A DNA stretch of 64,000 bases from NCBI GenBank assembly GCA_016198685.1, contig JACQID010000004.1, forward strand, positions 1-64,000. The letters run 5' to 3'. Below the pieces are notes generated by a model, which saw nothing but the letters and a program-made list of their open reading frames with translations, had not been told where the DNA came from and did no database searches. Both the position numbers and the translations under genes were made by a program. Positions 34,401 to 50,347 of this stretch are shown piece by piece (position 1 is the stretch's first letter; the number at the start of each line of letters is the position of its first letter). Source of the DNA: Candidatus Aenigmatarchaeota archaeon. Its GTDB lineage: Archaea; Aenigmatarchaeota; Aenigmatarchaeia; GW2011-AR5.

Positions 34401-35348
34401 TTAGTAAGGCGACCAACTTATAACATAATTCTCGTAAACGTTGGCCACATCGTAATAGTTATATTCTTTGCCGAACTTTTCCTTGAAATTGTTGAGTATT
34501 TGCCTTAGCACGATTTTATTTTCCACGTGAAGTTCGATGCACAAATCATATCTTCCCAGAACTTCAAAAATGAAGATCACTTTATTCGTCTGGTAGAAAA
34601 ACTGGATTACGTTTGGTATGGAACTATGACTCTTCATATTTATCATTATTTCTATAAATTCAAGCCCAAGCTTGTCAAAATTAGGCATTGCCGAATAAGC
34701 AAATATAATTCCCGTCTGTTCCAGTTTTTTCATCCGATATTTTACTACTCCAGATTCAATCTTTATCATCTTCGCCAACTCTACAAGCTTAAGCCTTCCG
34801 TTAGTGGCCAATGCCTTCATTATAGCTGTGTCAGTTTCATCTGCCCGGTAATGACCAATATCAGTATTGTCAAAAGAACGCCGAGTGCCGGCGCCATTAT
34901 GAAGAAAATGATTGCCGAATTTATGTGTTCTTGCTATGATATGCATATCTTTGGTTGAAAAATACTTTCCGAAATTATTTTTAATGCCAAAAAGAAACTG
35001 TTTGAAGTCTTTCAGTTCCTTCACGGCGATAATAAAATCCAGATCATGCGCCCCGTCACATATCCTCAATTGTAAGCAATTTTTGCTCTCCTTTACGTAA
35101 GATATCAGTTTTTTCTCTATATCCGGCGTTGTATCTACGAAAACCATTGAAAGCTTGTAAAATTTATATGCCATTTTAGCGGCATTGAAAATTGTGTAGA
35201 ATTCTTTTATGTACTCTTGTTCCATGAGTTTGTTTATCCTGAAATTTACCGTTTCCTTGGAACTTCTCAGCTTTTTTGCGATTCGGGTTACAGGAGCTCT
35301 TGCGTTCAAGTCTAACTCATAGATGATCTTTTTGTCAAGAACATCCAT
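34401..35348 (-). CDS. Lrp/AsnC-family regulator with internally duplicated HTH+RAM units
   Basis: LDKKIIYELDLNARAPVTRIAKKL and DETDTAIMKALATNGRLKLVELAKMI. Confidence 0.85.
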   Translation of the reverse strand: MDVLDKKIIYELDLNARAPVTRIAKKLRSSKETVNFRINKLMEQEYIKEFYTIFNAAKMAYKFYKLSMVFVDTTPDIEKKLISYVKESKNCLQLRICDGAHDLDFIIAVKELKDFKQFLFGIKNNFGKYFSTKDMHIIARTHKFGNHFLHNGAGTRRSFDNTDIGHYRADETDTAIMKALATNGRLKLVELAKMIKIESGVVKYRMKKLEQTGIIFAYSAMPNFDKLGLEFIEIMINMKSHSSIPNVIQFFYQTNKVIFIFEVLGRYDLCIELHVENKIVLRQILNNFKEKFGKEYNYYDVANVYENYVISWSPY

Positions 35349-37977: not shown

Positions 37978-38089
37978 AATATTTAAAATTATAGAGATTT
38001 TGCGAAGAAAATACCATGGAATGCAGGCGAAGAAACGTGATGACGGGAATTTTGGCGGGGTTAGTGAATATTTTTGTTTTCAGGCGCGT

Positions 38090-38611
38090 TCAGGCTCTGC
38101 ATTCGCTGCAGAGGAACTTGCTGTCCAGTTCTTCGACGTCGTCAGAGTAGTTCCCGCACGACTCGCATTCCGAGAACTCCATCCGCTCCTGTTCCGCTTC
38201 CGGCTCGGAAATAGTCTGCATTTTTTCAAGGAGGATCTCAAAGAGCGAAGGCTGAACCTTCAGTATATCCGTAGCGGTCACGATCCCCACTATCTTGTCG
38301 CCGTCCAGCACCGGGAGCTTTTCTATGTTTTTCTCGGCAAGCAGCTTGGCAGCCTGTTCAATCGTCTTGTTGGGCGATATCGTTATCACGGGAGAAGTGG
38401 CTATGTCCTTTACATGGCTTCCCTTTCCTTCAGCGACATGTTTGTATATTATGTCCGTGGCCGTAATGATGCCTATCGGATAACCTTTTATGAGCAGTGA
38501 CCCTATTTTTTTATCCTTCATTACCTTTGCCGCATGGGTTATCGTGTCTTCTAATGCGACCGTTTCCACGCCCTTGTTCATGATTTCCCGTACTGTTGGA
38601 TATAATTTCAT
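38090..38611 (-). CDS. CBS-pair protein with C-terminal zinc ribbon
   Basis: TVREIM...two CBS domains...CESCG...LCSECR; start set at MKLYPTV. Confidence 0.88.
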   Translation of the reverse strand: MKLYPTVREIMNKGVETVALEDTITHAAKVMKDKKIGSLLIKGYPIGIITATDIIYKHVAEGKGSHVKDIATSPVITISPNKTIEQAAKLLAEKNIEKLPVLDGDKIVGIVTATDILKVQPSLFEILLEKMQTISEPEAEQERMEFSECESCGNYSDDVEELDSKFLCSECRA

Positions 38612-38879
38612 ACTGACCCTTGTGTAAAACATGGCGAGATTCTTCTTAAAGCTGAATTCCTTGCGTTGTCGCGGAGCTATTGCGCTCACGAAGTGGAGGA
38701 GCCCCGTAAATCGTGCAGGACCTGAGTTTTCTTGATGGATACCTTTCGACGGGAAAGGAAACATTCTGTTTGGCGCACTTGATGTCCCATTATTACGTAT
38801 TCATGCGGCACGGCGAAACGGAGTTCTGCAGAAGGTGCACGGCGCGAGGGATAGCTTAGTACTCCCCGTATATTAATTG

Positions 38880-39740
38880 TTATATGTTTCCGTACAAGGC
38901 GTCAAAATTTTTAGAGATGCTGTCCAATATATAGCCAAGTTTAGCCGCGGGTATCTGCGGCACGTACATCTCCATTACGGCGTCGTCTGGCATATGGTTT
39001 AAAAGCCGTCTAGATTCCCTTTTCGTAAGCATATCTCCTCTTTCATTTACTATCTGAATAATGCCTTCCCGAATCGCGTTTTTCAATTTCTTGTCCCTTT
39101 GAAGAAATACGCGTCTTGTAAGACGATCTCTTGTGGTTGATGAACTATCATCCCTTTTCCCCATATATACTAATGCAGAACGAACACGCGGCTTAGGATA
39201 GAAGGATTCTGGGGGAATTGATTCATGAATGCGCACATCATAAATTGAACGAAGCATCATAGCAAGTTTTGTATAGTCGTTGTCTTCAGAAGACGATATA
39301 ATACGGGTGACAAAATCTAGTGGCAAGATAAGACTGGAGGCAGCAGGCTCCTGAACAAAAAGTTTCTGTAAAAGTGGTTCAGAAATCCGGTATGGCACAT
39401 TCGACATGAATTTGTGGGCGGCTGGCCACGGGACGCGAAGAGCATCTCCTGTTATAAGATAGAAATTGTGATAGGATGCCAACTCTTTCGACAACAATTC
39501 ACTAAATCTTGGATCTTTTTCTATTGCATATAATGAATGTGGCATGTCGTTAAGGGCCAATCTTGCAAGATTTCCGTATCCCGGTCCCACTTCGAGAACA
39601 TTATCATAGGAAGTTATCCCGAGTAAATAGACAGTTTCTCTGGATACCGCCGAATCAATAAGGAAGTGCTGGTCCAGATTGACCGTGTCTTGCGATATGC
39701 GATTGTATGCTATTTTATCGGAACCGTCTGGAATTGTCAT
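38880..39740 (-). CDS. rsmA: RsmA/KsgA-family rRNA adenine methyltransferase paralog B
   Basis: LDQHFLID, VLEVGPGYG, AIEKD, GDAL, SNVPYRIS, FYPKPRVRSALV. Confidence 0.75.
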   Translation of the reverse strand: MTIPDGSDKIAYNRISQDTVNLDQHFLIDSAVSRETVYLLGITSYDNVLEVGPGYGNLARLALNDMPHSLYAIEKDPRFSELLSKELASYHNFYLITGDALRVPWPAAHKFMSNVPYRISEPLLQKLFVQEPAASSLILPLDFVTRIISSSEDNDYTKLAMMLRSIYDVRIHESIPPESFYPKPRVRSALVYMGKRDDSSSTTRDRLTRRVFLQRDKKLKNAIREGIIQIVNERGDMLTKRESRRLLNHMPDDAVMEMYVPQIPAAKLGYILDSISKNFDALYGNI

Positions 39741-39757
39741 TTGTACACCGTATTATT

Positions 39758-40663
39758 CTAAAACATGGCATCGCCATAGCGACTCTGCCAGCTTCGCCCG
39801 CCGCCTCTTGGTTTGTGACTGCCGCCCCATATCCTTTTGGGCTTGGCAGAAGACAAATATTCGAAAAATCTGGTAAATTCATAGCTTGTCAGGGCATCTA
39901 CCCTTTTGTCCATATAGGGGTTTTCAGCTCGCGTTTCCTGAACATATCTATCTATTCCGGCGTCCTGTTCTTCGGTATACTGACTCAAAGCCGCACGAAA
40001 GGCATCTTGAAGGGGCCGTTTATTCTGGTCCCAAACGCACCTCAAAGTGAATAGTGGGAAATCCTTCTTCATAGACATTTTTTCCCGGGGATATAGTCCG
40101 ACTAATACAGCGTTTGTTGAAGGTTCAGGATCGAAGCTTTCGCTCCCGACGTCCATTAAATGTTCGGGACTGAAGTAGGCATTGGTGAGAAGTCCCAGTC
40201 TTGTATCTTTTCTTCTGCAGGCGGAATTCGCGAAATTTTCCCCTACCAACAGGAAGGAAGGAGCAGGTTTTCCGTTAAATAACTTCATCATTAGCGGCTC
40301 CGTTATGTTGAACGGGATATTGCCGACCATCTTATCGTGTTTCGGAAACCTTGCAGTTATGGCATCTCCGTAAATCACGGAAACATTGGGGTGTTCCCTC
40401 TGCACATCTTCGAGGTATTGACGCATTCGAGCGTCCTTTTCTATAGCCACTACCCGGCCTGCGAACAAGGCAATTTCACGAGTAATTGACCCCTTTCCCG
40501 GGCCGATTTCTAATGCAGTTTCATAGGAATCTACATCGGCATGAAGAACCATCTGCCTCGGAATTTCACTATCTACTAGGAAGTGCTGATTTAGGACTTC
40601 TGTCTGGTTAGACGTTGTCATATGATAACCGCAATTAACATCCAGACAAACTTTATAAACCAT
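39758..40663 (-). CDS. rsmA: RsmA/KsgA-family rRNA adenine methyltransferase paralog A
   Basis: LNQHFLVD, LEIGPGKG, AIEKD, GDAI, GNIPFNIT, FDPEPSTNAVLV. Confidence 0.72.
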   Translation of the reverse strand: MVYKVCLDVNCGYHMTTSNQTEVLNQHFLVDSEIPRQMVLHADVDSYETALEIGPGKGSITREIALFAGRVVAIEKDARMRQYLEDVQREHPNVSVIYGDAITARFPKHDKMVGNIPFNITEPLMMKLFNGKPAPSFLLVGENFANSACRRKDTRLGLLTNAYFSPEHLMDVGSESFDPEPSTNAVLVGLYPREKMSMKKDFPLFTLRCVWDQNKRPLQDAFRAALSQYTEEQDAGIDRYVQETRAENPYMDKRVDALTSYEFTRFFEYLSSAKPKRIWGGSHKPRGGGRSWQSRYGDAMF

Positions 40664-40722
40664 AGTCTGGTATCTGCCTTCTGACCGCAGAGTCTTTTTA
40701 TTTTTTCGGGATAACCAATTAT

Positions 40723-41409
40723 ATGCAAAAAATCGTTTCTCTCGTTTCCGGTGGCATGGATTCCTGCACTACAATGGCGAAAGCAGCGATGGATGGAAAT
40801 CATATATATCCATTATTTTTTAATTATGGCCAAAAATCCGCCAAAATGGAGGTTACAGCGGCCCAGAATTACATCAACGAATTGAGAAAACGGTCAGTGA
40901 ATATAAATACGCTTCAAATAGTGACGATTTCGATGCCGTTTCTGAGAGTTGCGCTCACGGGAACAGGAAACATTACAAAGGCGGCGGACAAAGACTTTCA
41001 TTCCATGGAATCGAAGAAGATAGATTGGGTGCCGGCCAGAAATGTAATTTTCCTTACTATTGCCAGTTCATACTGCGAAATTGTAAAGGCGCGATGCATT
41101 ACCATAGGCGCTTATAAGGAGGACGAAATGCCGCCGTATCCAGATTCGTCCCGGGAGTTTTTCGATTCCATGGAAATATCGTTGAGTAGAGGCATTTATG
41201 GCGACAAATTTGAAATAAGAACTCCGTTTTTGCATAATTTCAAATGGGATATGATAACATTTTCGAAGGCTAACGGGCTTCCGGTTGATGTGACGTGGTC
41301 GTGCTATGAATCCGGAGAGAAGCATTGTGGGGCATGCAGAAATTGTCTCGACAGAAAGAACGCCTTTGAAAAGGTCATGGCGCCGGACGTCACAGAGTAT
41401 GTCGTCTGA
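40723..41409 (+). CDS. queC: 7-cyano-7-deazaguanine synthase
   Basis: SGGMDS PP-loop, FNYGQ, VPARN, YPD, TWSCY...HCGACRNC zinc site. Confidence 0.93.
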   Translation: MQKIVSLVSGGMDSCTTMAKAAMDGNHIYPLFFNYGQKSAKMEVTAAQNYINELRKRSVNINTLQIVTISMPFLRVALTGTGNITKAADKDFHSMESKKIDWVPARNVIFLTIASSYCEIVKARCITIGAYKEDEMPPYPDSSREFFDSMEISLSRGIYGDKFEIRTPFLHNFKWDMITFSKANGLPVDVTWSCYESGEKHCGACRNCLDRKNAFEKVMAPDVTEYVV

Positions 41410-42207
41410 TCAGTTTCTAAATTTTTTCCTGACAGAATAGACATCAAAGAGTGCTTGGGATACCCATCCGAGAGTATATGCCGAGTTCCATGCAAGCATG
41501 TAGGCCGCTACATCTAAGCCTTTTTTTGATGCTATGTCGATTTCCTTATCGTAAAACGCACCCAGACCCTTCATCAGGTTTTTTTCCACGCCAATGCGTT
41601 TTCCTACGCCATATCTCCATGCGCTCCGTAAATCTGTACAGGGTGTTAGTGGCGGATGATTTATGGTAGCCTCTACTATGTAGTTTATAGGTATATCATT
41701 TATCTGAACCCGGCGATCGAATTCGGCATCTTCCACCCAGTGGATATCCCTGTCGTACAGATAGCCCCCTATATCACTTTTTATAGATCTTCGCATGGCC
41801 AGTGGAGGTTTATAGGCGGTGATTCTGTCCGATGTTGTGTATTCTCTCGCTCTGGCTATTACATGACTAGGGTAACCCTTGGTTTGGAAAAGAACCCTGC
41901 CTTTTGCGAGTTTATAACCCTCGAGACCCTCGTAGAGCATCCGTATTGTTCCGGGATTGAATGTGCAATCCGAGTCTATAAGCAGAACCCTTTCGTTCGA
42001 TGCCGCATGTATACCTTCATCAAGAGCCGCGCCCAAGTTCCTCTCGGCAAGTTCACATGAATCCCTGCCAGATTCTTTAACTATCCGTTTTATGTCTGGA
42101 GTGGGGCCATTCATAGAAACGATTACTTCCACATCTTCATCGATGCTCTGGAGACAGTCCCTTAAGCGCAGATCGTTGGCGACAGGAATTATGATCGATA
42201 TGTCCAT
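41410..42207 (-). CDS. Soluble GT2 glycosyltransferase
   Basis: SIIIPV, IDSDC (DxD), WVEDAEF; no TM helices apparent. Confidence 0.82.
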   Translation of the reverse strand: MDISIIIPVANDLRLRDCLQSIDEDVEVIVSMNGPTPDIKRIVKESGRDSCELAERNLGAALDEGIHAASNERVLLIDSDCTFNPGTIRMLYEGLEGYKLAKGRVLFQTKGYPSHVIARAREYTTSDRITAYKPPLAMRRSIKSDIGGYLYDRDIHWVEDAEFDRRVQINDIPINYIVEATINHPPLTPCTDLRSAWRYGVGKRIGVEKNLMKGLGAFYDKEIDIASKKGLDVAAYMLAWNSAYTLGWVSQALFDVYSVRKKFRN

Positions 42208-42220
42208 TTAAAATTACTAT

Positions 42221-42898
42221 ATGTCAATGATTATATGCATGGTATTTAACAATACTGTTATGGTTTTTGCCGCTCACCCGGACGACGAATCTATAGGATG
42301 CGGGGGTAGTATGGCCAAGTATGCTAGTCAGGGACGTCGACTGTTTCTGACATGCATGACATCATCGAATTCGCAAGACGCGAGAGAGATACGCGAAACG
42401 GAAGCCCATAATGCTGCCAAAAAATTGGGTGTGGAAGAGTTGTTCTTTCTTCGAGAACCCGATAGATTTCTTGAGTATAATAGAAATGCATTGATACCCA
42501 CAATCAACCTCCTAAGGCGAACGCGACCGGATTATATATTCATTCCGCATCCCGATGAGCATGATCGTGACCATAGGTCTGCATACGACATAAGTAGCGA
42601 AGCCGCATGGTTGTCTTCAAGTCCTTATATGCCGGAATTGGGCAAGCCCTGCGATATCAAAGGCATATTTATGTATGAAGTATGGACACCAATACAACAC
42701 CCTCAATATTTTGAAGATATTACAGGATTTGTCCAACAAAAGAGGAGTGCCATAGAGTGCTATGGGTCGCAGATATCGCATGTCAATTATGCGGATGCGG
42801 CTATCGGCCTGAATAAATTTCGGGGCATAATGAGTGGTACAGGTGATTTTTCCGAGGCATTTCTGATAAAGCGTTTAAGAGATGTCTGTATGAAATGA
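42221..42898 (+). CDS. PIG-L/LmbE-family de-N-acetylase
   Basis: AAHPDDESIGCGG, R..E...AA..LG, HPDEHDRDH. Confidence 0.9.
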   Translation: MSMIICMVFNNTVMVFAAHPDDESIGCGGSMAKYASQGRRLFLTCMTSSNSQDAREIRETEAHNAAKKLGVEELFFLREPDRFLEYNRNALIPTINLLRRTRPDYIFIPHPDEHDRDHRSAYDISSEAAWLSSSPYMPELGKPCDIKGIFMYEVWTPIQHPQYFEDITGFVQQKRSAIECYGSQISHVNYADAAIGLNKFRGIMSGTGDFSEAFLIKRLRDVCMK

Positions 42899-42902
42899 TG
42901 CC

Positions 42903-43604
42903 ATGAATGGCGTTACCTGGGTGAAGAATATACTGCATACGACATATACCAAAATTTCCAATGATTTTATAAGGTCGGACCTTTCGACAAACAAATACGC
43001 TCCTGCGGAGAATGTTATAAAGACCCTGAGAGAGTCTATACCCAGAATTTCGGCGTATCCCGACAGGAATTGGTCGTTATTGACGAAGAAAATAGAAAGT
43101 TATACGGGAATTTCGGACGATCATATGTTGACGACCAATGGTCTCAAAAAGGCAATAATCTCATTGTAATGAGAAATTTCTCAAATCTTTTGGTCTGGCC
43201 GGTATGCGGCTGGGATACATCATAGCGCATCCTGAAACGGTAGACATGTTGCTGCGGTTGAGGCGCCATCGAGAGTCAATATGATGGTGCAACGCGCGGC
43301 CATAGCTTGCAATGATAGCGTTGATTATTATGCAAGCACATGGGTAAAAGCGAAAAAGACGGTAAAGAGACTTGTAGATGAATTGACCGTTATTGGACTA
43401 TATGCCGAACCTTCTGCAACGAATTTTGTGTATATCAGAACTTCTCGCGCGGAGGCAATATTTTACCATCTCTGGAAAAATAAAATCTCGGTGTTCCCTT
43501 CATGGGACTCCGAATTTATAGATGCGGATCGCGATGGGCTCAGAATAGTCGCTGGCCTGCCGGACGAGAATATCGCATTATTGAAAGCATTGAAAACCAT
43601 GTAA
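42903..43604 (+). pseudogene. Decayed PLP-dependent class I/II aminotransferase (HisC/CobD-like)
   Basis: N-part LSTNKY...YPD...TNG; after frame change NNLIVMRNFS[K]SFGLAGMRLGYII; second shift to APSRVNMMVQRAA...PSATNFV; central region missing. Confidence 0.8.
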
Positions 43605-43616
43605 GGCGGCATGATT

Positions 43617-45317
43617 CTATTTCTCAATCATGAAATCACCGATGAAAAGGTAATCCATGCCGCTTCCATACATAGTGCGTAGTGCATCTCTGGGACTACA
43701 TACAAGCGCCTCTCCTTTTACATTAAGGGAAGTGTTGACGACTACCGGAACACCCGTGATTTCGCCCACATTTTCTATGAGTTTCCTATATCTGGGATTG
43801 CTTTTTTTATCAACCGTCTGAGGCCTAGTTGTACCATCTACGTGAACTACCGCAGGTATATCTCCGGCCCGATCTTTGCGGACATCAAATCCTAATATCA
43901 TATATGGTGAAGAATGCGGTTGTTCCAGATAATTGGCCGCCGCTTCATCGAGCATCGAAGGGCCAAATGGCCTGTACCACTCTCTGTATTTTACTGCTTC
44001 ATTCAGTCTGTTTTTCATATCAGGATTTCTTGGGTCGGCAAGTATGCTTCTGTTGCCCAATGCTCTGGGTCCCCATTCCATGCCACCTTGAAACCAGCCT
44101 ACTATTTTTCCGTTTGTGATAAGCTGCGCGGCCATGCCTTCGGGATCATCTTGGTATTTGAATGGTATCTTGAGCGATAGTAGCTCCCTTTCAATGGCTT
44201 CTTCTGAGAATGCCGGCCCCAGATAGACATTCGGAATAATTGTTCTGGCGTTGTATCCCAGTCGGGAATAGAGCTCTAGAGCGGCGCCCATACTGCATCC
44301 CGCGTCATTGGCAGCCGGTTGGATAAATATATCATCCACAATACCGGAACGCAATATCTTGCCGTTGGCGACGCAATTCAATCCCACACCCCCGGATAGT
44401 GACAGGTTCTTAGAGCCAGTTTCTTCAACAGCAATTTTGGCAAGATATAACATCATATCTTCGACTATGGCTTGTGCCGAAGCGGCGGCATCCATATAAA
44501 CCGGGGTCATGATAGTTTCACGCGCGAATTTTTTCGCATCTTGGTCATAGATGAATGAAGGCGCATTGGCCCTTCCAAATCGGCTGGAGAATAATTTTAC
44601 CCATTGCTCGCGTATTTGGGTTTCTTCATCGCTGACTCCGTCTTTTCCAAGTACTATTCCCGACCTGTTTATATTGGACCTATAGCTTTTGCCGTTAGTT
44701 GTGAAAGCGTCTGACAGTGACATTCTTCGTCTGCCGTATGCTGCAAGCCCCATAGTCTTGCCAGGTTCGTTGGGTTCTAAGCCCACGAATCCCGTCGAGG
44801 CCTCGTAAAAATATCCCAATGAATCAGGTATGCCTATTTTTCTGACTAATTTTATTTGGTTTCCGTCTCCATACCACAAGGAAGTGGAGACGTCTTCGCC
44901 CTGCCCGTCCGCCACTACAATGGCGCTTTTGTCGTAGCCCGAGACTCGGAATGCGCTTGAAGCATGCGACAAATGATGCTCGATGAAAGAAATCCGCGGA
45001 GATTTACCATAATCAAACATTGTTCTGGGGAATATTTGTTCTGGGAGAGTACTTTCATCTAGGCGGTCCGTCATGCCTCTAATTTTATAATGATACGGCC
45101 AGTCCCAGTAAACCGCTACATGATCTATTTCGTTGACTCCTATGCCGGCGACATCAAGGCAGTACTTGATGGAATTATGAGGCAATGTGTCGTATGAATA
45201 CTTTTTTCTGATCAGTTTTTCCTCTTCTACCGCAGCTACAATTTTGCCGTCTTTTAGAAGCGTTGCCGACGCATCATGACCTCTATCGTTCCAGCCTGCA
45301 ATACCAAGTATGTACAT
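43617..45317 (-). CDS. Carbamoyltransferase (NodU/CmcH/TobZ family)
   Basis: ILGIAG..HDASA..EEEK; HHLSHA; DGQGE; GKTMGLAAYG; GGVGLNC; PAANDAG; EWGPRALGNRS; RPFGPS; VHVDGTTRPQTV; NTSLN. Confidence 0.93.
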   Translation of the reverse strand: MYILGIAGWNDRGHDASATLLKDGKIVAAVEEEKLIRKKYSYDTLPHNSIKYCLDVAGIGVNEIDHVAVYWDWPYHYKIRGMTDRLDESTLPEQIFPRTMFDYGKSPRISFIEHHLSHASSAFRVSGYDKSAIVVADGQGEDVSTSLWYGDGNQIKLVRKIGIPDSLGYFYEASTGFVGLEPNEPGKTMGLAAYGRRRMSLSDAFTTNGKSYRSNINRSGIVLGKDGVSDEETQIREQWVKLFSSRFGRANAPSFIYDQDAKKFARETIMTPVYMDAAASAQAIVEDMMLYLAKIAVEETGSKNLSLSGGVGLNCVANGKILRSGIVDDIFIQPAANDAGCSMGAALELYSRLGYNARTIIPNVYLGPAFSEEAIERELLSLKIPFKYQDDPEGMAAQLITNGKIVGWFQGGMEWGPRALGNRSILADPRNPDMKNRLNEAVKYREWYRPFGPSMLDEAAANYLEQPHSSPYMILGFDVRKDRAGDIPAVVHVDGTTRPQTVDKKSNPRYRKLIENVGEITGVPVVVNTSLNVKGEALVCSPRDALRTMYGSGMDYLFIGDFMIEK

Positions 45318-45365
45318 ACAAATAACACGATTTTTTATTCTTAAACATCTTCGCATATTGTCATT

Positions 45366-46139
45366 ATGGGGAAAGGTGTTGATGCATCGTTTTGGGATAA
45401 AGTGGGTTCGGAGATAGGATACGACTTTACATCATTGCGCTTATACCGCGAAGGCGAAAATTGTGAGGAAAAATTCAGGCGACTTGTCACGAATAATATC
45501 TGCCAAAACAGCGTAGCAATTGACATAGGGGTCGCTGACGGCTCGTTTGATATTAGTTTATCCGATAAGCTGAAATTTATCGTAGGCATTGACACTTCTA
45601 CAAAAATGATTGAAAAAGCGCGCCAAAAACTCGCGATTTCCGGATCAAGAAACGTATTCTTATCCATCTCGGACGGTAGGGAATTACCGTTTGCTGATGC
45701 ACAATTTGACATTTCGATTAGTAGGAGAGGACCCAGTACTTCCAGCATGGAATTTCTTCTGGAAACCAAGCGTATTTTGAACAGGGGCGGGATATTTCTA
45801 GAGATAACTATAGGTGAGAAAGACAAAGAAAATATAAAGAGAATATTCGGAAGAGGGCAGAATTATACGGCGCTGATGGCAGGCAGAAGCGAAATGTTAA
45901 GAAAAAAGGCCATGCTGCAAAAAGCGGGTTTCGTGGACATAGAAGTGAGTGAAATGAATTCGGCGGAATTCTACGAGTCCGTGGAGGATATTATGTTTCT
46001 CCTTCGCAACACCCCGATAATTCCCGACTTTAACAGGATTAATGACATGGAGTATATTCATAAACTGATGAAAGACGCAAAAACGGAGAGGGGAATACGC
46101 ACGAATAGCCATCGAATTATCATATCGGCAAGGAAATGA
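45366..46139 (+). CDS. Class I SAM-dependent methyltransferase
   Basis: AIDIGVADG, GIDTSTKMIEKA, DGRELPFADAQFDISISRRGP. Confidence 0.85.
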   Translation: MGKGVDASFWDKVGSEIGYDFTSLRLYREGENCEEKFRRLVTNNICQNSVAIDIGVADGSFDISLSDKLKFIVGIDTSTKMIEKARQKLAISGSRNVFLSISDGRELPFADAQFDISISRRGPSTSSMEFLLETKRILNRGGIFLEITIGEKDKENIKRIFGRGQNYTALMAGRSEMLRKKAMLQKAGFVDIEVSEMNSAEFYESVEDIMFLLRNTPIIPDFNRINDMEYIHKLMKDAKTERGIRTNSHRIIISARK

Positions 46140-46140
46140 T

Positions 46141-46920
46141 TCATCTGCCCCTATCCGACCCCCATAGAAGAATATGTAATCTCGGCGTGAATCCGTATCC
46201 AGATGCTTTGCACGTCTCCACGATGAACCGGGATCTGCGGAGTACATCCTCACGTGTCGTGCCCTCCGGCATTAATAGGACCTTGTTTTTTTGGATTTTG
46301 TAACGCGCGACAATATCGTTGATTCCGTAGATATCGTTCTCAGAGCAAACTACAAATTTAAACCATGCGGTATTAGCATTTGAAAAAAAGGACAGAGCTG
46401 CGGCATTTTCTCTCATAATAGCCCTGTTTCCAGAGGATTCGAGTTTGGGCGAAACATTCCATTGTTTTATGCTGGCAGAAAAGAGCTCATTTGGGACTAT
46501 GGTGCCGTTCGTTTCCGTTTCGATATAGTAGCCTAATTCATTAACACAGTTTAGGAATTTCAAGAGCTCCGGATCTTTTTGCTGCAGCAATGGTTCCCCG
46601 CCTGTAAGTACTATGCGTTTACAGTCAAATTTCTCTATAGTTTGTATTAACTCTTCGGATAGCATATCGATACTTTCTTTGAAGGGGTGATAGAGTTTGG
46701 TATCCTCTCTGGGGGCGGAAGAATTGTCCGTAGTAGCCTTCTCAACGTTCTTTAGCATTTGTTTGCTGAAAAGCCATGTATATTTTGTGTCGCACCACCA
46801 GCAATGTAAATTGCATGAAGAAAGCCGGATAAAAATCGAAGGAATGCCGAGAGAGCGACCTTCGCCTTGCACGGAATAGAATACTTCATTTACCTTCATT
46901 GTCTTTCCAGTATTCCGCAT
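46141..46920 (-). CDS. queE: 7-carboxy-7-deazaguanine synthase (radical SAM)
   Basis: EVFYSVQGEG, FIRLSSCNLHCWWCDT, LTGGEPLLQ, IETNGT, VSPKL, PRLHILLW. Confidence 0.92.
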   Translation of the reverse strand: MRNTGKTMKVNEVFYSVQGEGRSLGIPSIFIRLSSCNLHCWWCDTKYTWLFSKQMLKNVEKATTDNSSAPREDTKLYHPFKESIDMLSEELIQTIEKFDCKRIVLTGGEPLLQQKDPELLKFLNCVNELGYYIETETNGTIVPNELFSASIKQWNVSPKLESSGNRAIMRENAAALSFFSNANTAWFKFVVCSENDIYGINDIVARYKIQKNKVLLMPEGTTREDVLRRSRFIVETCKASGYGFTPRLHILLWGSDRGR

Positions 46921-47275
46921 ATTGATTTTGGGATTCCCAAACCCTTACCCTCTCCAGATTTTTGATGCCCTTGTCCTCCAGTTTATGGAATAATATTTTC
47001 GAGACATTCTCGGCCGTAGCATTGTTTCCCAGAATGTTATTAAGATGATTGTGGTCAAATTCGCTCAGACATGATCGAAGCCCACTTTTTAATTCTATGA
47101 AGTCAGAATTTTCTAAAATCCCATTGGAATCTGTAGTTTGACCTGTTACGAACACTTCCACTTTATACGTATGTCCGTGGAGGTTTCTGCATTTCCCAGC
47201 ATGCCCAGGTATGCTATGTGACGCGTCAAAATGGTCCTCTATGCGCAATCGAAACATTATAACGTCCCCTCCCAT
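46886..47275 (-). CDS. queD: 6-carboxy-5,6,7,8-tetrahydropterin synthase
   Basis: FDASH...CRNLHGHTY...FDHNHLN...TAEN...VWES. Confidence 0.93.
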   Translation of the reverse strand: MGGDVIMFRLRIEDHFDASHSIPGHAGKCRNLHGHTYKVEVFVTGQTTDSNGILENSDFIELKSGLRSCLSEFDHNHLNNILGNNATAENVSKILFHKLEDKGIKNLERVRVWESQNQYAEYWKDNEGK

Positions 47276-48021
47276 TGCGAAGAGATGTTATGATCATGGA
47301 TTGACTCGAAGCTTATGCACTTGATATGACATTGCCTTCGCGGATATTCGGCCTTCAGTTCAGCCGCGCATTTACGTACAACGTCCTCCACAAACATGGG
47401 GTTTTGGTGGATTTTTTCCACAACCGATTTTTCTTGCGGGCGTTTCAGCAAACTATATGTCGGTGAACTAAAGCACGAATTGCATATATCAATAAGATAA
47501 GCGTGATTTATTGGGGCCCCCGTAGTGTCCAATCGTAGTTGCAATTCACCGCGTTGGTTATGCGTCAGCCCACCAGTCAATTCTTTTGAACATGGGCATG
47601 CTAAGATGCCTTTCAATGAAAGCTCTATGGTTCTTTGCTTTGTTCTCGTATCATAAGTAGCGCAAACGTTTACTATAGCAGTTTCCTTTCCCCCAGAAAC
47701 GTTTCTTTTATGAAATGGCATTATGCCAGAAACCTTCGTTTCGCAATGATAGTGGTGTTTTTCCAGTATGCTCTTTGCAAGGGTCTCCGCGACGTCTTCA
47801 ATGGAATGCATATTTGAACTCAGGTTGTGTATAGATTCAATGAACCTGCTCATGTGGGCACCCCTTTGATGAGCCGGCAAAGTGACGTATGCGTCAATGG
47901 ACATTACGCATTGATATGCATCTGAGTCACTGCCTACAATTATGAGTTTTTTTACGTTTTCTACCCCCACGCGGGATAGCTCTAATGGATTTGCGGGTAC
48001 AGAATTTTGAACATCTATCAT
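47257..48021 (-). CDS. folE2: GTP cyclohydrolase type IB (FolE2/MptA)
   Basis: DVQ...VG, RGAHMSRF, ACPCS, HNQRG, LLKRPQE..V....NPMFVEDVVR, ESIHDH. Confidence 0.9.
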   Translation of the reverse strand: MIDVQNSVPANPLELSRVGVENVKKLIIVGSDSDAYQCVMSIDAYVTLPAHQRGAHMSRFIESIHNLSSNMHSIEDVAETLAKSILEKHHYHCETKVSGIMPFHKRNVSGGKETAIVNVCATYDTRTKQRTIELSLKGILACPCSKELTGGLTHNQRGELQLRLDTTGAPINHAYLIDICNSCFSSPTYSLLKRPQEKSVVEKIHQNPMFVEDVVRKCAAELKAEYPRRQCHIKCISFESIHDHNISSQWEGTL

Positions 48022-48143
48022 TCTTTATCTATGTAGTTCAACAATTAAAATCTTCTATTCAGCAATATATTGCAAATTCGAGAAAATAACCACTTCGGCA
48101 TCAATGATAAGTTTCGAGAGGTACTTTTTGGCGGGGTGACTCA

Positions 48144-48264
48144 TGCACCATCCGGGATTTGAACCCGGATCACGAGCTGTTTCCATGCTATTTTAATACA
48201 GCATACGATGCAGCGAAGTTGCGGGCATTGGGAAGCTCGAATCCTGCCATTAGACTAATGGTGC
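48144..48264 (-). tRNA. tRNA-Gly(CCC) with 50-nt intron at 37/38
   Basis: GCACCAT/ATGGTGC acceptor; CGAGC-TT CCC A|intron|A-GCTCG; CCGGG-TTCAAAT-CCCGG T-arm; TTCC/GGAA central helix with ACA bulge. Confidence 0.9.
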
Positions 48265-48291
48265 TTTTCTGATAAGTTTTCTAGAAAATAC

Positions 48292-48615
48292 TTAAGTGTG
48301 ATTTCTAGTCCTAAGCAGGCGGATCCTTTTCGAGAATAAAATTTTTTCAAGAACTTTTGCATTATAATCCGGCTGGCCATCAGAGTTGAAAATGCCAGAA
48401 TAAAAAGCTCTTACGGTCCTATATTGCTCATGTCTTGGAACTTTGGCATTCGATGCCATAGGCTCGATCTCCAATGTATAGCCTATATGGTCCTTAGGCA
48501 TTTCCCTTGACACTACAAAATAATAGACAGCTATTTTGTTTTCTCCTTCGCTTGTCCATACTACTTCATGAACGGTACCCCTGCGTCTGACATAGATCGG
48601 CCCATCCGTAGACAA
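48292..48615 (-). CDS. Hypothetical protein
   Basis: 107-aa ORF with TTG start; no motif recognised. Confidence 0.45.
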   Translation of the reverse strand: MSTDGPIYVRRRGTVHEVVWTSEGENKIAVYYFVVSREMPKDHIGYTLEIEPMASNAKVPRHEQYRTVRAFYSGIFNSDGQPDYNAKVLEKILFSKRIRLLRTRNHT

Positions 48616-48796
48616 GAAATATGATTCATGGTTGTCTATGACAGTATAGAAATCGGAGCTATAGGCTCTTGCCCGAAAGCCGTTACGCCTGAGTCTTCAT
48701 GCAAATTCAGACGGCATTATGAAGGTAACTTTTAGAATAATGCATATTCCAGGAGAATAAAATAATATCATATGCGATTAGTTCCTTAAGAAAGAA

Positions 48797-48950: not shown

Positions 48951-50321
48951 TTGTCGCCCGCTTGCAACATTATAAACGGATATGCGGATAGTAGGCCTAT
49001 GCGGCTCAGAAGAACTGTGGGTGTCTGGGGCGCGACATCCGTAGGAATTGCTAATATCATTGGCGCAGGCATATTCGTACTGAGCGGTGTCGCCGCAGGC
49101 ATTGCCGGGCCATCCGTTATATTATCATTCTTTATCGCAGGCTTCATAGCGTTGATGACCGCGCTCTCGGCAGCCGAACTTTCATCGCTAATAACCGAAA
49201 CAGGTGCCAGTTATGCCTTTACCAAGAAAGCTTTCGGCAGGTTTTGGAGTTTCCTCGTAGGCTGGTTCAAGTATTTTGATTATACTGTCGGTGCCGCCGC
49301 TGTATCCGTAGGCTTTGCAGCGTATTTTGCCGCGTTTTTCGGAATGAACGGGCCCACTGCCTTGGCATTATCGGCCGTTGGCTTGCCGGTCGCGCTTACT
49401 ATTCTGAATCTGATTGGCGTACGTGAAACCGCCCGGGCTACTGCAGCGATGGTTTTTGTTAAAGTCTTTGCGCTAGTCCTGCTTGTGATGCTCGGGATTT
49501 TTTATCTTGGGCAGAATTTCAATGCCTCTCATTATACGCCGTTTTTTGTCAATGGCTTGGGCGGCACACTTGAAGCTGCTGCTGTAGTATTCTTCGCGTT
49601 CCTTGGGTTCAATACCGTGAGCATGATGTCCGAGGAAACGAAAAATCCTGAGAAGACTATTCCGCGTGCATTAATGATAGCTTTTTTCGTCTCATTCATA
49701 CTTTATATGGCAATAGCGGTGGTGGAAATCGGAGTTCTGGACTGGAACACCATGGGATCAACAGCATCTCCCTTGATAGAACTTGCGGCAGCGTTGACGT
49801 CTAACCGGATGTTCATGGACTTTATTGCATTCTCTGCCATGGTAGCAACAGGTTCTGTAGCCCTGAGCTCAATGATAGGTGGCACGAGAACGAGCTATGT
49901 GATGGGGCGCGATGGCCTTCTTCCGCGCCAGTTCGAATCTGTCAGCAAACGGTTCGGAACGCCTTATATTTCCATACTTGTCAGCGGCATGATAATTACA
50001 GTACTTGCAGGACTTTTCGCTGATAATATAGCACTCATAGTTTCAATCGTGAATTTCGGAAGCCTCTTCACTTACATGTTTACTCATTTATCGTTAATAA
50101 GATTGCGCCACCTCATGCCTAAGGCAAAGCGTCATTTCAGAGTTCCCGCTTATCCAGTCGTGCCTATTATCGGAATAATAAGTTGCCTTTTTTTCATGTT
50201 TTATCTCAGTGTTGATGCCAAGGTGGCAGCAATGTTATGGGCAGCTATAGGGATTGTTGCATATGCGGTTTTTCACACTAAAAGAAGCAAAGTTCCTCTA
50301 GGATTTTTAGTCAAGGATTAG
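48951..50321 (+). CDS. APC-family amino acid permease
   Basis: IIGAGIFVLSG..AGIAGP, AELSS, FFAFLGF, EETKNPEKTIPRA, GLLPR, GTPY. Confidence 0.92.
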   Translation: MSPACNIINGYADSRPMRLRRTVGVWGATSVGIANIIGAGIFVLSGVAAGIAGPSVILSFFIAGFIALMTALSAAELSSLITETGASYAFTKKAFGRFWSFLVGWFKYFDYTVGAAAVSVGFAAYFAAFFGMNGPTALALSAVGLPVALTILNLIGVRETARATAAMVFVKVFALVLLVMLGIFYLGQNFNASHYTPFFVNGLGGTLEAAAVVFFAFLGFNTVSMMSEETKNPEKTIPRALMIAFFVSFILYMAIAVVEIGVLDWNTMGSTASPLIELAAALTSNRMFMDFIAFSAMVATGSVALSSMIGGTRTSYVMGRDGLLPRQFESVSKRFGTPYISILVSGMIITVLAGLFADNIALIVSIVNFGSLFTYMFTHLSLIRLRHLMPKAKRHFRVPAYPVVPIIGIISCLFFMFYLSVDAKVAAMLWAAIGIVAYAVFHTKRSKVPLGFLVKD

Positions 50322-50347
50322 GGTATTGTTTCTTAGAATAAATTTAA

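Follow-up and report, generated by a model that had tools for sequence, protein, structure and literature searches.

The subject of this work is a block of genes in a 64,000-nucleotide stretch of DNA from a Candidatus Aenigmatarchaeota archaeon (contig JACQID010000004.1, positions 1 to 64,000 of the forward strand; hereafter the window), in which a pathway to 7-cyano-7-deazaguanine (preQ0) stands beside genes for sugar tailoring. Described systems resemble it in parts. In streptothricin biosynthesis, StnG glycosylates a guanidine imine nitrogen (PMC7435583), and a deacetylase and a carbamoyltransferase complete the carbamoylated gulosamine, according to the account of Guo et al. (2015) given in PMC10156733; the genes stnG, stnI and stnQ are named in PMC13358218. 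Streptothricin F binds helix 34 of 16S rRNA, where its streptolidine, a guanine mimic, is hydrogen-bonded to C1054 and its carbamoyl-sugar contacts A1196, mutations of which lead to 16- to 64-fold resistance (PMC10187937). Huimycin, encoded by huiA-G of Kutzneria albida, is an N-acetylglucosamine (GlcNAc) glycoside of O6-methyl-preQ0 (PMC7439116). The genes for preQ0 itself, FolE2/MptA, QueD, QueE and QueC, are also those of the archaeosine pathway and of the Dpd systems.

As read from its genes, the window cluster is probably a variety of 7-deazapurine glycoside cluster, which would use the streptothricin sugar module and carry dedicated rRNA-type methylases. We consider it probable that the block, which makes up an accessory island described below, is a horizontally acquired small-molecule biosynthetic cluster, and not a tRNA or DNA modification pathway. 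Its product is most likely a streptothricin-like N-glycoside of 7-deazaguanine with carbamoylated glucosamine. An earlier note on the window had proposed a glycosylated, deacetylated, carbamoylated and/or methylated deazaguanine made independently of TGT, leaving open whether this would be a small molecule or a nucleic-acid modification; the core of that idea is supported, and on the point left open the evidence favours the small molecule. We found no description of this cluster family in the open-access literature, and a 2026 genome-mining preprint on 7-deazapurine clusters is restricted to bacteria, with the words carbamoyl, PIG-L and deacetylase nowhere in its text.

The preQ0 pathway and the tailoring enzymes

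The open reading frame (ORF) listing, together with Pfam and NCBIfam profile searches, gave 11 genes within 38880-48021, and every gene that the earlier note had named is in place. The set for preQ0 synthesis is complete by both profile matches and catalytic motifs. It consists of a FolE2/MptA-type GTP cyclohydrolase for the first step from GTP (47257-48021, minus strand; PF02649, E=5.7e-62), the 6-carboxytetrahydropterin synthase QueD/PTPS (46886-47275, minus strand; PF01242, 1e-29), the radical S-adenosylmethionine (SAM) enzyme QueE, 7-carboxy-7-deazaguanine synthase (46141-46920, minus strand; PF04055, and NCBIfam QueE models at 1e-23 to 1e-29), and the preQ0 synthase QueC (228 amino acids; 40723-41409, plus strand; PF06508, 2e-46). 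QueC has the PP-loop SGGMDS and the C-terminal four-cysteine zinc motif, QueE the cluster motif CNLHCWWC and QueD the motif CRNLHGH; QueD scores 88.8 bits with TIGR03367, against a cut-off of 89.25. The window QueC is 57-61% identical to QueC of the sister clusters L003, L005 and L026, and FolE2 is 48-50% identical to its homologues in L003 and L026. The genes folE2, queD and queE form an overlapping minus-strand set running from 48021 down to 46141, in which queD shares 35 nt with queE and 19 nt with folE2, an arrangement that fits a coupled operon. The QueC proteins of L109, L110, L111 and the P0044 contig are 385-436 amino acids long, as against 228 in the window, which suggests a fused extra domain.

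Among the tailoring enzymes, the soluble glycosyltransferase of the GT2 class and StnG family (265 amino acids; 41410-42207, minus strand; PF00535, 9e-11) retains its DSD motif and every family-invariant residue. Its AlphaFold model (pLDDT 94.8) has a GT-A fold and consists of the catalytic domain only; a fold search with this model gave no close solved relative, only generic GT-A matches (TM ~0.55-0.64), which include the nucleoside glycosyltransferase AvpGT and do not indicate the acceptor. The PIG-L/LmbE-family de-N-acetylase (42221-42898, plus strand; PF02585, 2e-27) has the zinc motif AHPDD, and its best solved relatives are an LmbE-related protein (2ixd) and BshB1 (6p2t), both at ~2e-19. 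BshB1 is the GlcNAc-malate deacetylase of bacillithiol synthesis, and the window enzyme is predicted to turn a GlcNAc conjugate into a glucosamine conjugate. The TobZ/NodU-type O-carbamoyltransferase (43617-45356, minus strand; Carbam_trans_N 3.5e-48, Carbam_trans_C 1.7e-70) has the two-domain architecture, Kae1-like plus YrdC-like, with both Pfam domains present. TobZ carbamoylates an aminoglycoside sugar, and residues 14-579 of the window protein align with its residues 7-572 (PDB 3ven; E=2.8e-119). Finally, a class I SAM methyltransferase of UbiE/ArsM-like type (45366-46139, plus strand; PF13649, PF08241 and PF13847, ~1e-11) is 35-49% identical across the archaeal sub-clade of L003, L005, L026, L027, L057 and L067; a PDB sequence search at E 1e-6 gave no solved relative, and the enzyme is predicted to act on the base or the sugar. 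None of the eight core enzymes has lost its catalytic motifs, and each is full length when compared with its L003 orthologue. The divergent intergenic spacers of 9-13 bp were set aside, because the listed ORF starts are probably over-extended.

We looked for a route from preQ0 into nucleic acids in the whole host genome (934,889 bp in 8 contigs, 93.7% complete). TGT (PF01702) has no match there, as against a match in each of the 14 control genomes; a tblastn search with the arcTGT of an archaeon of the same order went no lower than E 0.44, and neither ArcS (PF17884) nor QueF (PF14489) has a match at E ≤ 1. DpdA belongs to the TGT family. It was not found either, being covered by the TGT-family searches and by no search of its own, and a divergent DpdA might escape PF01702. 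The absence of tgt, arcS and queF from the window, on which the earlier note had remarked, thus extends to the whole assembly, with the same reservation for DpdA, and sets the genome apart from both archaeosine and Dpd systems. Since TGT is found in one and QueC in none of 40 relatives of the same order, and the genome itself is without TGT, ArcS and QueF, the lineage appears to lack archaeosine, and the que genes appear to be no leftover of that pathway.

Relatives of the cluster

A search of 5.8 billion proteins detected only 34 relatives of the GT2, on contigs where the neighbouring genes are again those of the window cluster, and a one-genome-per-species scan found 106 GT2 loci, 80 of which were kept. 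About half of these 80 are from Streptomyces and have no que genes. The window GT2 is 35-39% identical, over residues 4-263, to the GT2 proteins of 41 Streptomyces loci, which include L105 of Streptomyces sp. TP-A0356; a PIG-L homologue stands beside the GT2 gene in 40 of the 41, and a carbamoyltransferase is present within the retrieved stretch in 7. In L105, a pyridoxal phosphate (PLP) enzyme ORF of aminotransferase fold matches PDB 4m2j (E=6e-219), which we take to be the streptolidine cyclase OrfR, and the neighbours comprise a TauD dioxygenase, an epimerase fusion, PIG-L, an ATP-grasp enzyme and an AMP-binding enzyme. L105 is, by its gene content, a streptothricin-type cluster; its GT2 ORF was taken as StnG from the GT2-family match in the locus and from the literature (PMC7435583). 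The PIG-L of the window is 32-37% identical to PIG-L of streptothricin-type loci, and its carbamoyltransferase is 37-39% identical to the streptothricin-cluster counterparts, the alignments covering the greater part of each protein. By sequence comparison, then, the window GT2, PIG-L and carbamoyltransferase are homologous to the streptothricin sugar module. In the GT2 tree the actinomycete branch nests among que-linked branches; the tree is unrooted, and no direction of transfer is claimed.

The likeness to streptothricin extends to organization and to the predicted chemistry. StnG, StnI (the N-acetyl-gulosamine deacetylase) and StnQ, the homologues of the window trio, are clustered as the trio is, and in both cases an N-glycoside on a guanidine-type nitrogen of a guanine-like heterocycle would be followed by deacetylation and O-carbamoylation. 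However, the 11 genes of the island include no streptolidine genes (OrfP/OrfR type), no beta-lysine or non-ribosomal peptide synthetase genes and no gulosamine epimerase gene. The window has the preQ0 pathway for its aglycone, whereas streptothricin has streptolidine, and its candidate resistance gene is an rRNA-type methylase, whereas that of streptothricin is an acetyltransferase. The hosts differ as well, being DPANN archaea, the Candidate Phyla Radiation (CPR) and Bacillales for the que-linked clusters and actinomycetes for streptothricin.

The huimycin cluster and the proposed dapiramicin clusters resemble that of the window in joining preQ0 genes to a SAM methyltransferase and a glycosyltransferase, and a carbamoyltransferase gene, KALB_4074, adjoins huiG. 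Huimycin and dapiramicin are both reportedly glycosides attached at N2. The methylation that gives huimycin its 6-methoxy base is assigned to a HuiC-type methyltransferase, and the window has a methyltransferase of the class I SAM type. Unlike the predicted product of the window, however, huimycin retains the N-acetyl group and is not carbamoylated, and KALB_4074 is dispensable for it; the hui clusters contain a LuxR regulator and no rRNA methylase. Glycosyltransferases of the huimycin family carry PF13439 (bioRxiv 10.64898/2026.04.15.718813). PF13439 is presumably a domain of GT-B type, so that the window glycosyltransferase, which has PF00535 and a GT-A fold, is not homologous to them. The window cluster would work like the hui cluster and is not a member of that family.

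Linkage to que genes was counted over 84 tabulated loci, the window included, from tblastn and phmmer tables. Of these loci 34 are que-linked, and their hosts are CPR phyla, Woese-, Nano- and Aenigmatarchaeota, gammaproteobacterial metagenome-assembled genomes (MAGs) and Bacillales (Bacillus sonorensis, B. mycoides, Paenibacillus thiaminolyticus, P. wenxiniae, Croceifilum and Baia). Gene content and order as in the window are found in L003 (an NCBI MAG), which additionally has a PALP enzyme, and in L026 (Candidatus Aenigmatarchaeota, groundwater), while L005 and L027 have the order GT2-QueC-methyltransferase-BpsA_C-carbamoyltransferase-QueE. In L006, from Metabacillus idriensis, BpsA_C, a carbamoyltransferase, a DUF5591-like gene, GT2, a methyltransferase, PIG-L and a three-gene ABC exporter accompany QueC, QueD, QueE and FolE; some 30 further loci carry GT2, PIG-L, carbamoyltransferase and que genes together, and the carbamoyltransferase is present in 37 of 39 non-actinomycete GT2 loci. 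Chance can hardly account for the arrangement, since dozens of unrelated genomes have the same set together as a unit. The earlier note had reckoned with the case that the tailoring genes never accompany que genes elsewhere; in fact they accompany them across phyla. Within the phylum, GT2 occurs in 2 of the 301 genomes sampled, and the second of these, G248 (whose cluster contig is that of L027), carries another variant of the cluster. TnpB/IS605 genes flank L003. No relative of the GT2 family was found in the IMG/VR viral contigs scanned.

Several variants were noted among the loci. Two from Woesearchaeota (L029 and L047) and one from Nocardia sp. CC227C (L035) have GT2, PIG-L and carbamoyltransferase and no que genes within 10 kb, and L047 and L035 have RrnaAD as well; these loci may use another aglycone or salvaged preQ0. 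In the Bacillales loci L006, L045, L046, L049-L051, L053, L059 and L060, a protein of ~250 amino acids encoded directly upstream of GT2 shows weak similarity to the C-terminal domain of ArcS (DUF5591), and could act on the preQ0 nitrile. BpsA_C (PF01861, aminopropyltransferase-like), which is absent from the window, is a common component of the clusters, as in L005, L027, L110 and many CPR loci, where it may extend the freed sugar amine with a polyamine-like tail.

Candidate immunity, proposed product and competing explanations

The island contains two paralogues of the RrnaAD (KsgA/Erm) family, paralogue 1 (286 amino acids; 38880-39740, minus strand; PF00398, E=1e-34) and paralogue 2 (301 amino acids; 39758-40663, minus strand; PF00398, 2e-34). 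The former has motif I VLEVGPGYG and motif IV NVPY, the latter motif IV NIPF, and their PDB matches are KsgA, Dim1 and ErmC'. With the KsgA model TIGR00755, paralogues 1 and 2 score 164 and 134 bits against a cut-off of 171, and with the Erm model NF000499 the score is 114 bits against a cut-off of 212. The alignment of paralogue 2 to TIGR00755 covers positions 7-255 of 256, and its RNA-binding C-terminal domain is therefore retained. Besides the island pair, contig C1 carries a further strong RrnaAD gene, making three in the genome; each of five relatives has just one. It is the C1 gene that clusters in the tree with these single copies (support 100/99), for which reason we rejected the island genes as housekeeping KsgA. 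Paralogue 1, which sits inside the segment missing from the congener G003, forms a long unresolved branch outside the housekeeping KsgA clade, its nearest row being a cluster-linked copy in L034. Paralogue 2 falls in a 100/100 clade that contains only cluster-linked archaeal copies, the others being from L003, L026, L052, L054, L057 and L067; among 5.8 billion proteins it has about 12 close relatives, beyond which scores fall sharply to generic KsgA. A gene of paralogue 2 type lies between the carbamoyltransferase and PIG-L or QueC in three of four further contigs, and in the fourth it is one of a tandem RrnaAD pair ~1.7 kb from a QueC gene with two other genes between, an arrangement close to that of the window. 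Paralogue 2 belongs to a subfamily found only with such clusters, among the members examined. The pair that the earlier note had called RsmA paralogues is thus real, and proves to be island cargo outside the housekeeping clade. Separately, past the end of the window, contig C6 of G000 has a weak RrnaAD-like match (64413-64619; 32.5 bits, in a frame of 286 amino acids), and weak matches to the same profile region (~27-94) occur in G001, G002, G003 and G007; the C6 match is probably an unrelated conserved methyltransferase.

Erm-type and other RrnaAD methylases are classic self-resistance genes of antibiotic clusters. With ErmE, PikR1/PikR2 and TlrA/TlrD the island pair shares PF00398, the N-[IV]-P-[YF] motif, the position within a cluster and the presence, sometimes, of two paralogues; it differs in falling below both equivalog cut-offs and in forming a subfamily of its own. 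An RrnaAD gene was counted in 19 of the 34 que-linked loci and an ABC exporter in 9; a single locus has both, and 7 have neither, several of these 7 lying on short contigs. The Bacillales versions have the ABC exporter in place of RrnaAD, L109 and L110 have MFS exporters, and none of the 41 Streptomyces loci has RrnaAD. The near mutual exclusion of RrnaAD and ABC exporter is the pattern of alternative self-resistance determinants. A ribosomal target with methylase immunity, in which the RrnaAD paralogues would methylate the producer's own rRNA, is a serious reading that falls a little short of probable.

What follows preQ0 in the pathway is inferred throughout from family assignments. FolE2, QueD, QueE and QueC would convert GTP to preQ0, and the StnG-family GT2, a predicted N-glycosyltransferase, would use UDP-GlcNAc to place GlcNAc on the 2-amino nitrogen of the deazaguanine, which is guanidine-like, the site being suggested by homology to the streptothricin guanidino-N-glycosyltransferase and by the N2-glycosides huimycin and dapiramicin. 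PIG-L would strip the acetyl group and free the sugar amine, the TobZ-type enzyme would O-carbamoylate a sugar hydroxyl with carbamoyl phosphate from the host CarB, and the SAM methyltransferase would add a methyl group. The aminotransferase step has been lost here, which would give a simpler congener than that of the sister clusters. The genome encodes CarB and several sugar nucleotidyltransferases, so that carbamoyl phosphate and nucleotide sugars are plausibly available. The 7-deazaguanine would stand where streptothricin has streptolidine, and the island methylases would modify the host's own rRNA as self-protection. We favour a small molecule because no TGT/DpdA-type enzyme was found, because tailoring genes and que genes go together across phyla, because the closest characterised relatives of the three sugar enzymes, TobZ, BshB1 and the streptothricin trio, act on conjugates of small-molecule amino sugars, and because the Bacillales and some archaeal versions of the cluster have ABC or MFS exporters.

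By analogy with streptothricin, 7-deazaguanine on the same sugar scaffold could bind as that drug does, and an adenine N6-methylase could protect the site; the methylation target would then be 16S helix 34, and not A2058 of 23S rRNA as for Erm. In its full form, the proposal is a streptothricin analogue that pairs with C1054 of helix 34, with KsgA/Erm-like methylases acting on the equivalent of A1196, as a mobile system of DPANN, CPR and some Bacillales. We regard so specific a combination as unlikely. If it is true, it is the first antibiotic-plus-immunity system assigned to ultra-small episymbionts, and a guanine mimic, streptolidine, is replaced by a true guanine analogue. More generally, the small-molecule reading, if true, would extend 7-deazapurine natural-product chemistry beyond actinomycetes into ultra-small archaea and bacteria, usually seen as biosynthetically poor. 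The module of N-glycosylation, deacetylation and carbamoylation would link the huimycin/dapiramicin family with the streptothricins, and the dedicated rRNA-type methylase subfamily would be a possible ribosome-protection determinant. The product is directly searchable in cultured carriers of the cluster: Bacillus sonorensis NBRC 101234, Bacillus mycoides GOE10, Paenibacillus thiaminolyticus BO5, Metabacillus idriensis, Croceifilum oryzae DSM 46876 and Baia soyae DSM 46831.

Several points weigh against our interpretation. No product is known for any member of the cluster family, the chemistry being inferred from homology and gene context, and the acceptor atom of the GT2 is a prediction only. 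The RrnaAD paralogues, scoring below the equivalog cut-offs, could methylate an amine of the metabolite instead. The aminotransferase pseudogene and the missing PALP gene of L003 indicate that the cluster could be decaying here. As to acquisition, the corresponding site of G003 has what looks like a deletion scar, so that gain and loss within the genus are not separable, and we found no convincing att direct repeat at the island ends and no integrase in the flanks.

Of the alternatives, the one that survives best accepts a small molecule and denies that it is a ribosome-targeting antibiotic: the product would be a cofactor, a bacillithiol-like protectant or a signal, and the RrnaAD proteins metabolite N-methyltransferases. 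The closeness of PIG-L to BshB1 and the low equivalog scores agree with this, as do the Bacillales versions, which have a different methyltransferase and the DUF5591-like protein and no RrnaAD. However, the established role of RrnaAD-family members in self-resistance, their near exclusion of ABC exporters across loci, the RNA-binding domain kept by paralogue 2 and a sugar module in common with a known ribosome inhibitor all speak against it, and we judge this alternative improbable.

It is also doubtful, slightly more so, that the cluster in this genome is a decaying remnant with no finished product, whatever the family does elsewhere. The observation that favours this explanation is the pseudogene of a class I/II aminotransferase (42903-43604, plus strand; identified by tblastn with the L003 protein). 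Two short ORFs in this interval have no Pfam match; with the intact L003 aminotransferase of 357 amino acids as the query, residues 8-87, 211-240 and 241-352 match in different frames and residues 88-210 are deleted. The relic of a PLP enzyme suspected in the earlier note is thereby established as the remains of an aminotransferase. The gene is intact in L003 and L026, and the L003 protein is ~24% identical to the OrfR-type ORF. The internal deletion and frameshifts, the absence of the L003 PALP gene and the highly reduced host genome are points in favour of decay. Against this stand the eight full-length core enzymes with their catalytic motifs kept and the folE2-queD-queE overlaps, which suit a coupled operon. 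Moreover, most variants of the cluster, L005, L027 and the CPR loci among them, do without the aminotransferase, and we therefore read its loss as that of an accessory decoration and not of the pathway.

A modified deazaguanine installed in tRNA, rRNA or DNA by a non-TGT route, with the KsgA/Erm-like enzymes as part of the machinery, is very unlikely. preQ0 is best known as a precursor of nucleic-acid modifications, the block adjoins a tRNA gene and two rRNA-type methyltransferases are present. However, the genome yielded no TGT/DpdA-family protein and the lineage hardly any, and we know of no enzyme outside the TGT family that inserts 7-deazaguanines. Furthermore, the closest relatives of the tailoring enzymes act on small molecules, exporters replace the methylases in the Bacillales versions, and the GT2 family was not found among the viral contigs scanned. 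A chance adjacency of que genes and tailoring genes serving cell-surface glycan synthesis, pathways in which GT2, PIG-L and carbamoyltransferase families are also known, can be dismissed as already contradicted by the conserved synteny, since the combination recurs in 34 loci of at least five phyla in varied gene orders, the block is present or absent as a whole unit, and the GT2 model has the GT-A catalytic domain only.

The accessory island beside tRNA-Gly

By blastn, contig C11 of the congener G003 (L107) is collinear with the window, save that 38681-48167 is replaced by 52 bp; window positions 38077-38680 and 48168-48304 are only these 52 bp apart in G003. This accessory island of 9.4 kb, with true edges at ~38765 and 48143, has no counterpart in G003. 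It abuts the 3′ end of a tRNA-Gly(CCC) gene of 121 nt with a 50-nt intron (48144-48264, minus strand), which is matched by Rfam RF00005 (50.4 bits) and called by ARAGORN in intron mode, and which the default ARAGORN run did not detect; both programs bear out the tRNA-Gly that the earlier note had placed next to the block. In G003 the 5′ half of this gene, its intron and the start of the 3′ half are kept and the T-arm and acceptor 3′ strand are missing, and ARAGORN calls no tRNA-Gly at the site. We therefore rejected G003 as a clean empty site or precise insertion point; the remnant is a deletion scar, or else belongs to a split tRNA gene with its other half elsewhere. In another congener, G002, the tRNA-Gly(CCC) gene is complete, intron included; the sequence 3′ of it is unrelated, and the island is absent. 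The 3′ side of tRNA-Gly is thus a variable region. A composition check proposed in the earlier note gave a divided result: the tetranucleotide distance of the island from the genome mean lies at the 95.5th percentile of genome windows, whereas in GC content (44.0%, with 45.2% for the genome as a whole) it is unremarkable.

The neighbouring DNA varies as well. Between tRNA-Gly and tRNA-Pro, an ORF of 107 amino acids (48292-48615) and an amino-acid permease (48951-50321) are missing in G003, where window positions 48305-48795 and 48959-50346 are replaced by 35 and 160 bp, making this interval an indel hotspot. On the other side of the island, the segment 34376-37594 has a low GC content of 39-40% and contains a double-HTH Lrp/AsnC-type regulator (34401-35348), a YHS-domain ORF and three ORFs without a family; its flanks are only ~800 bp apart in G003 and G001, and it appears to be another insertion.

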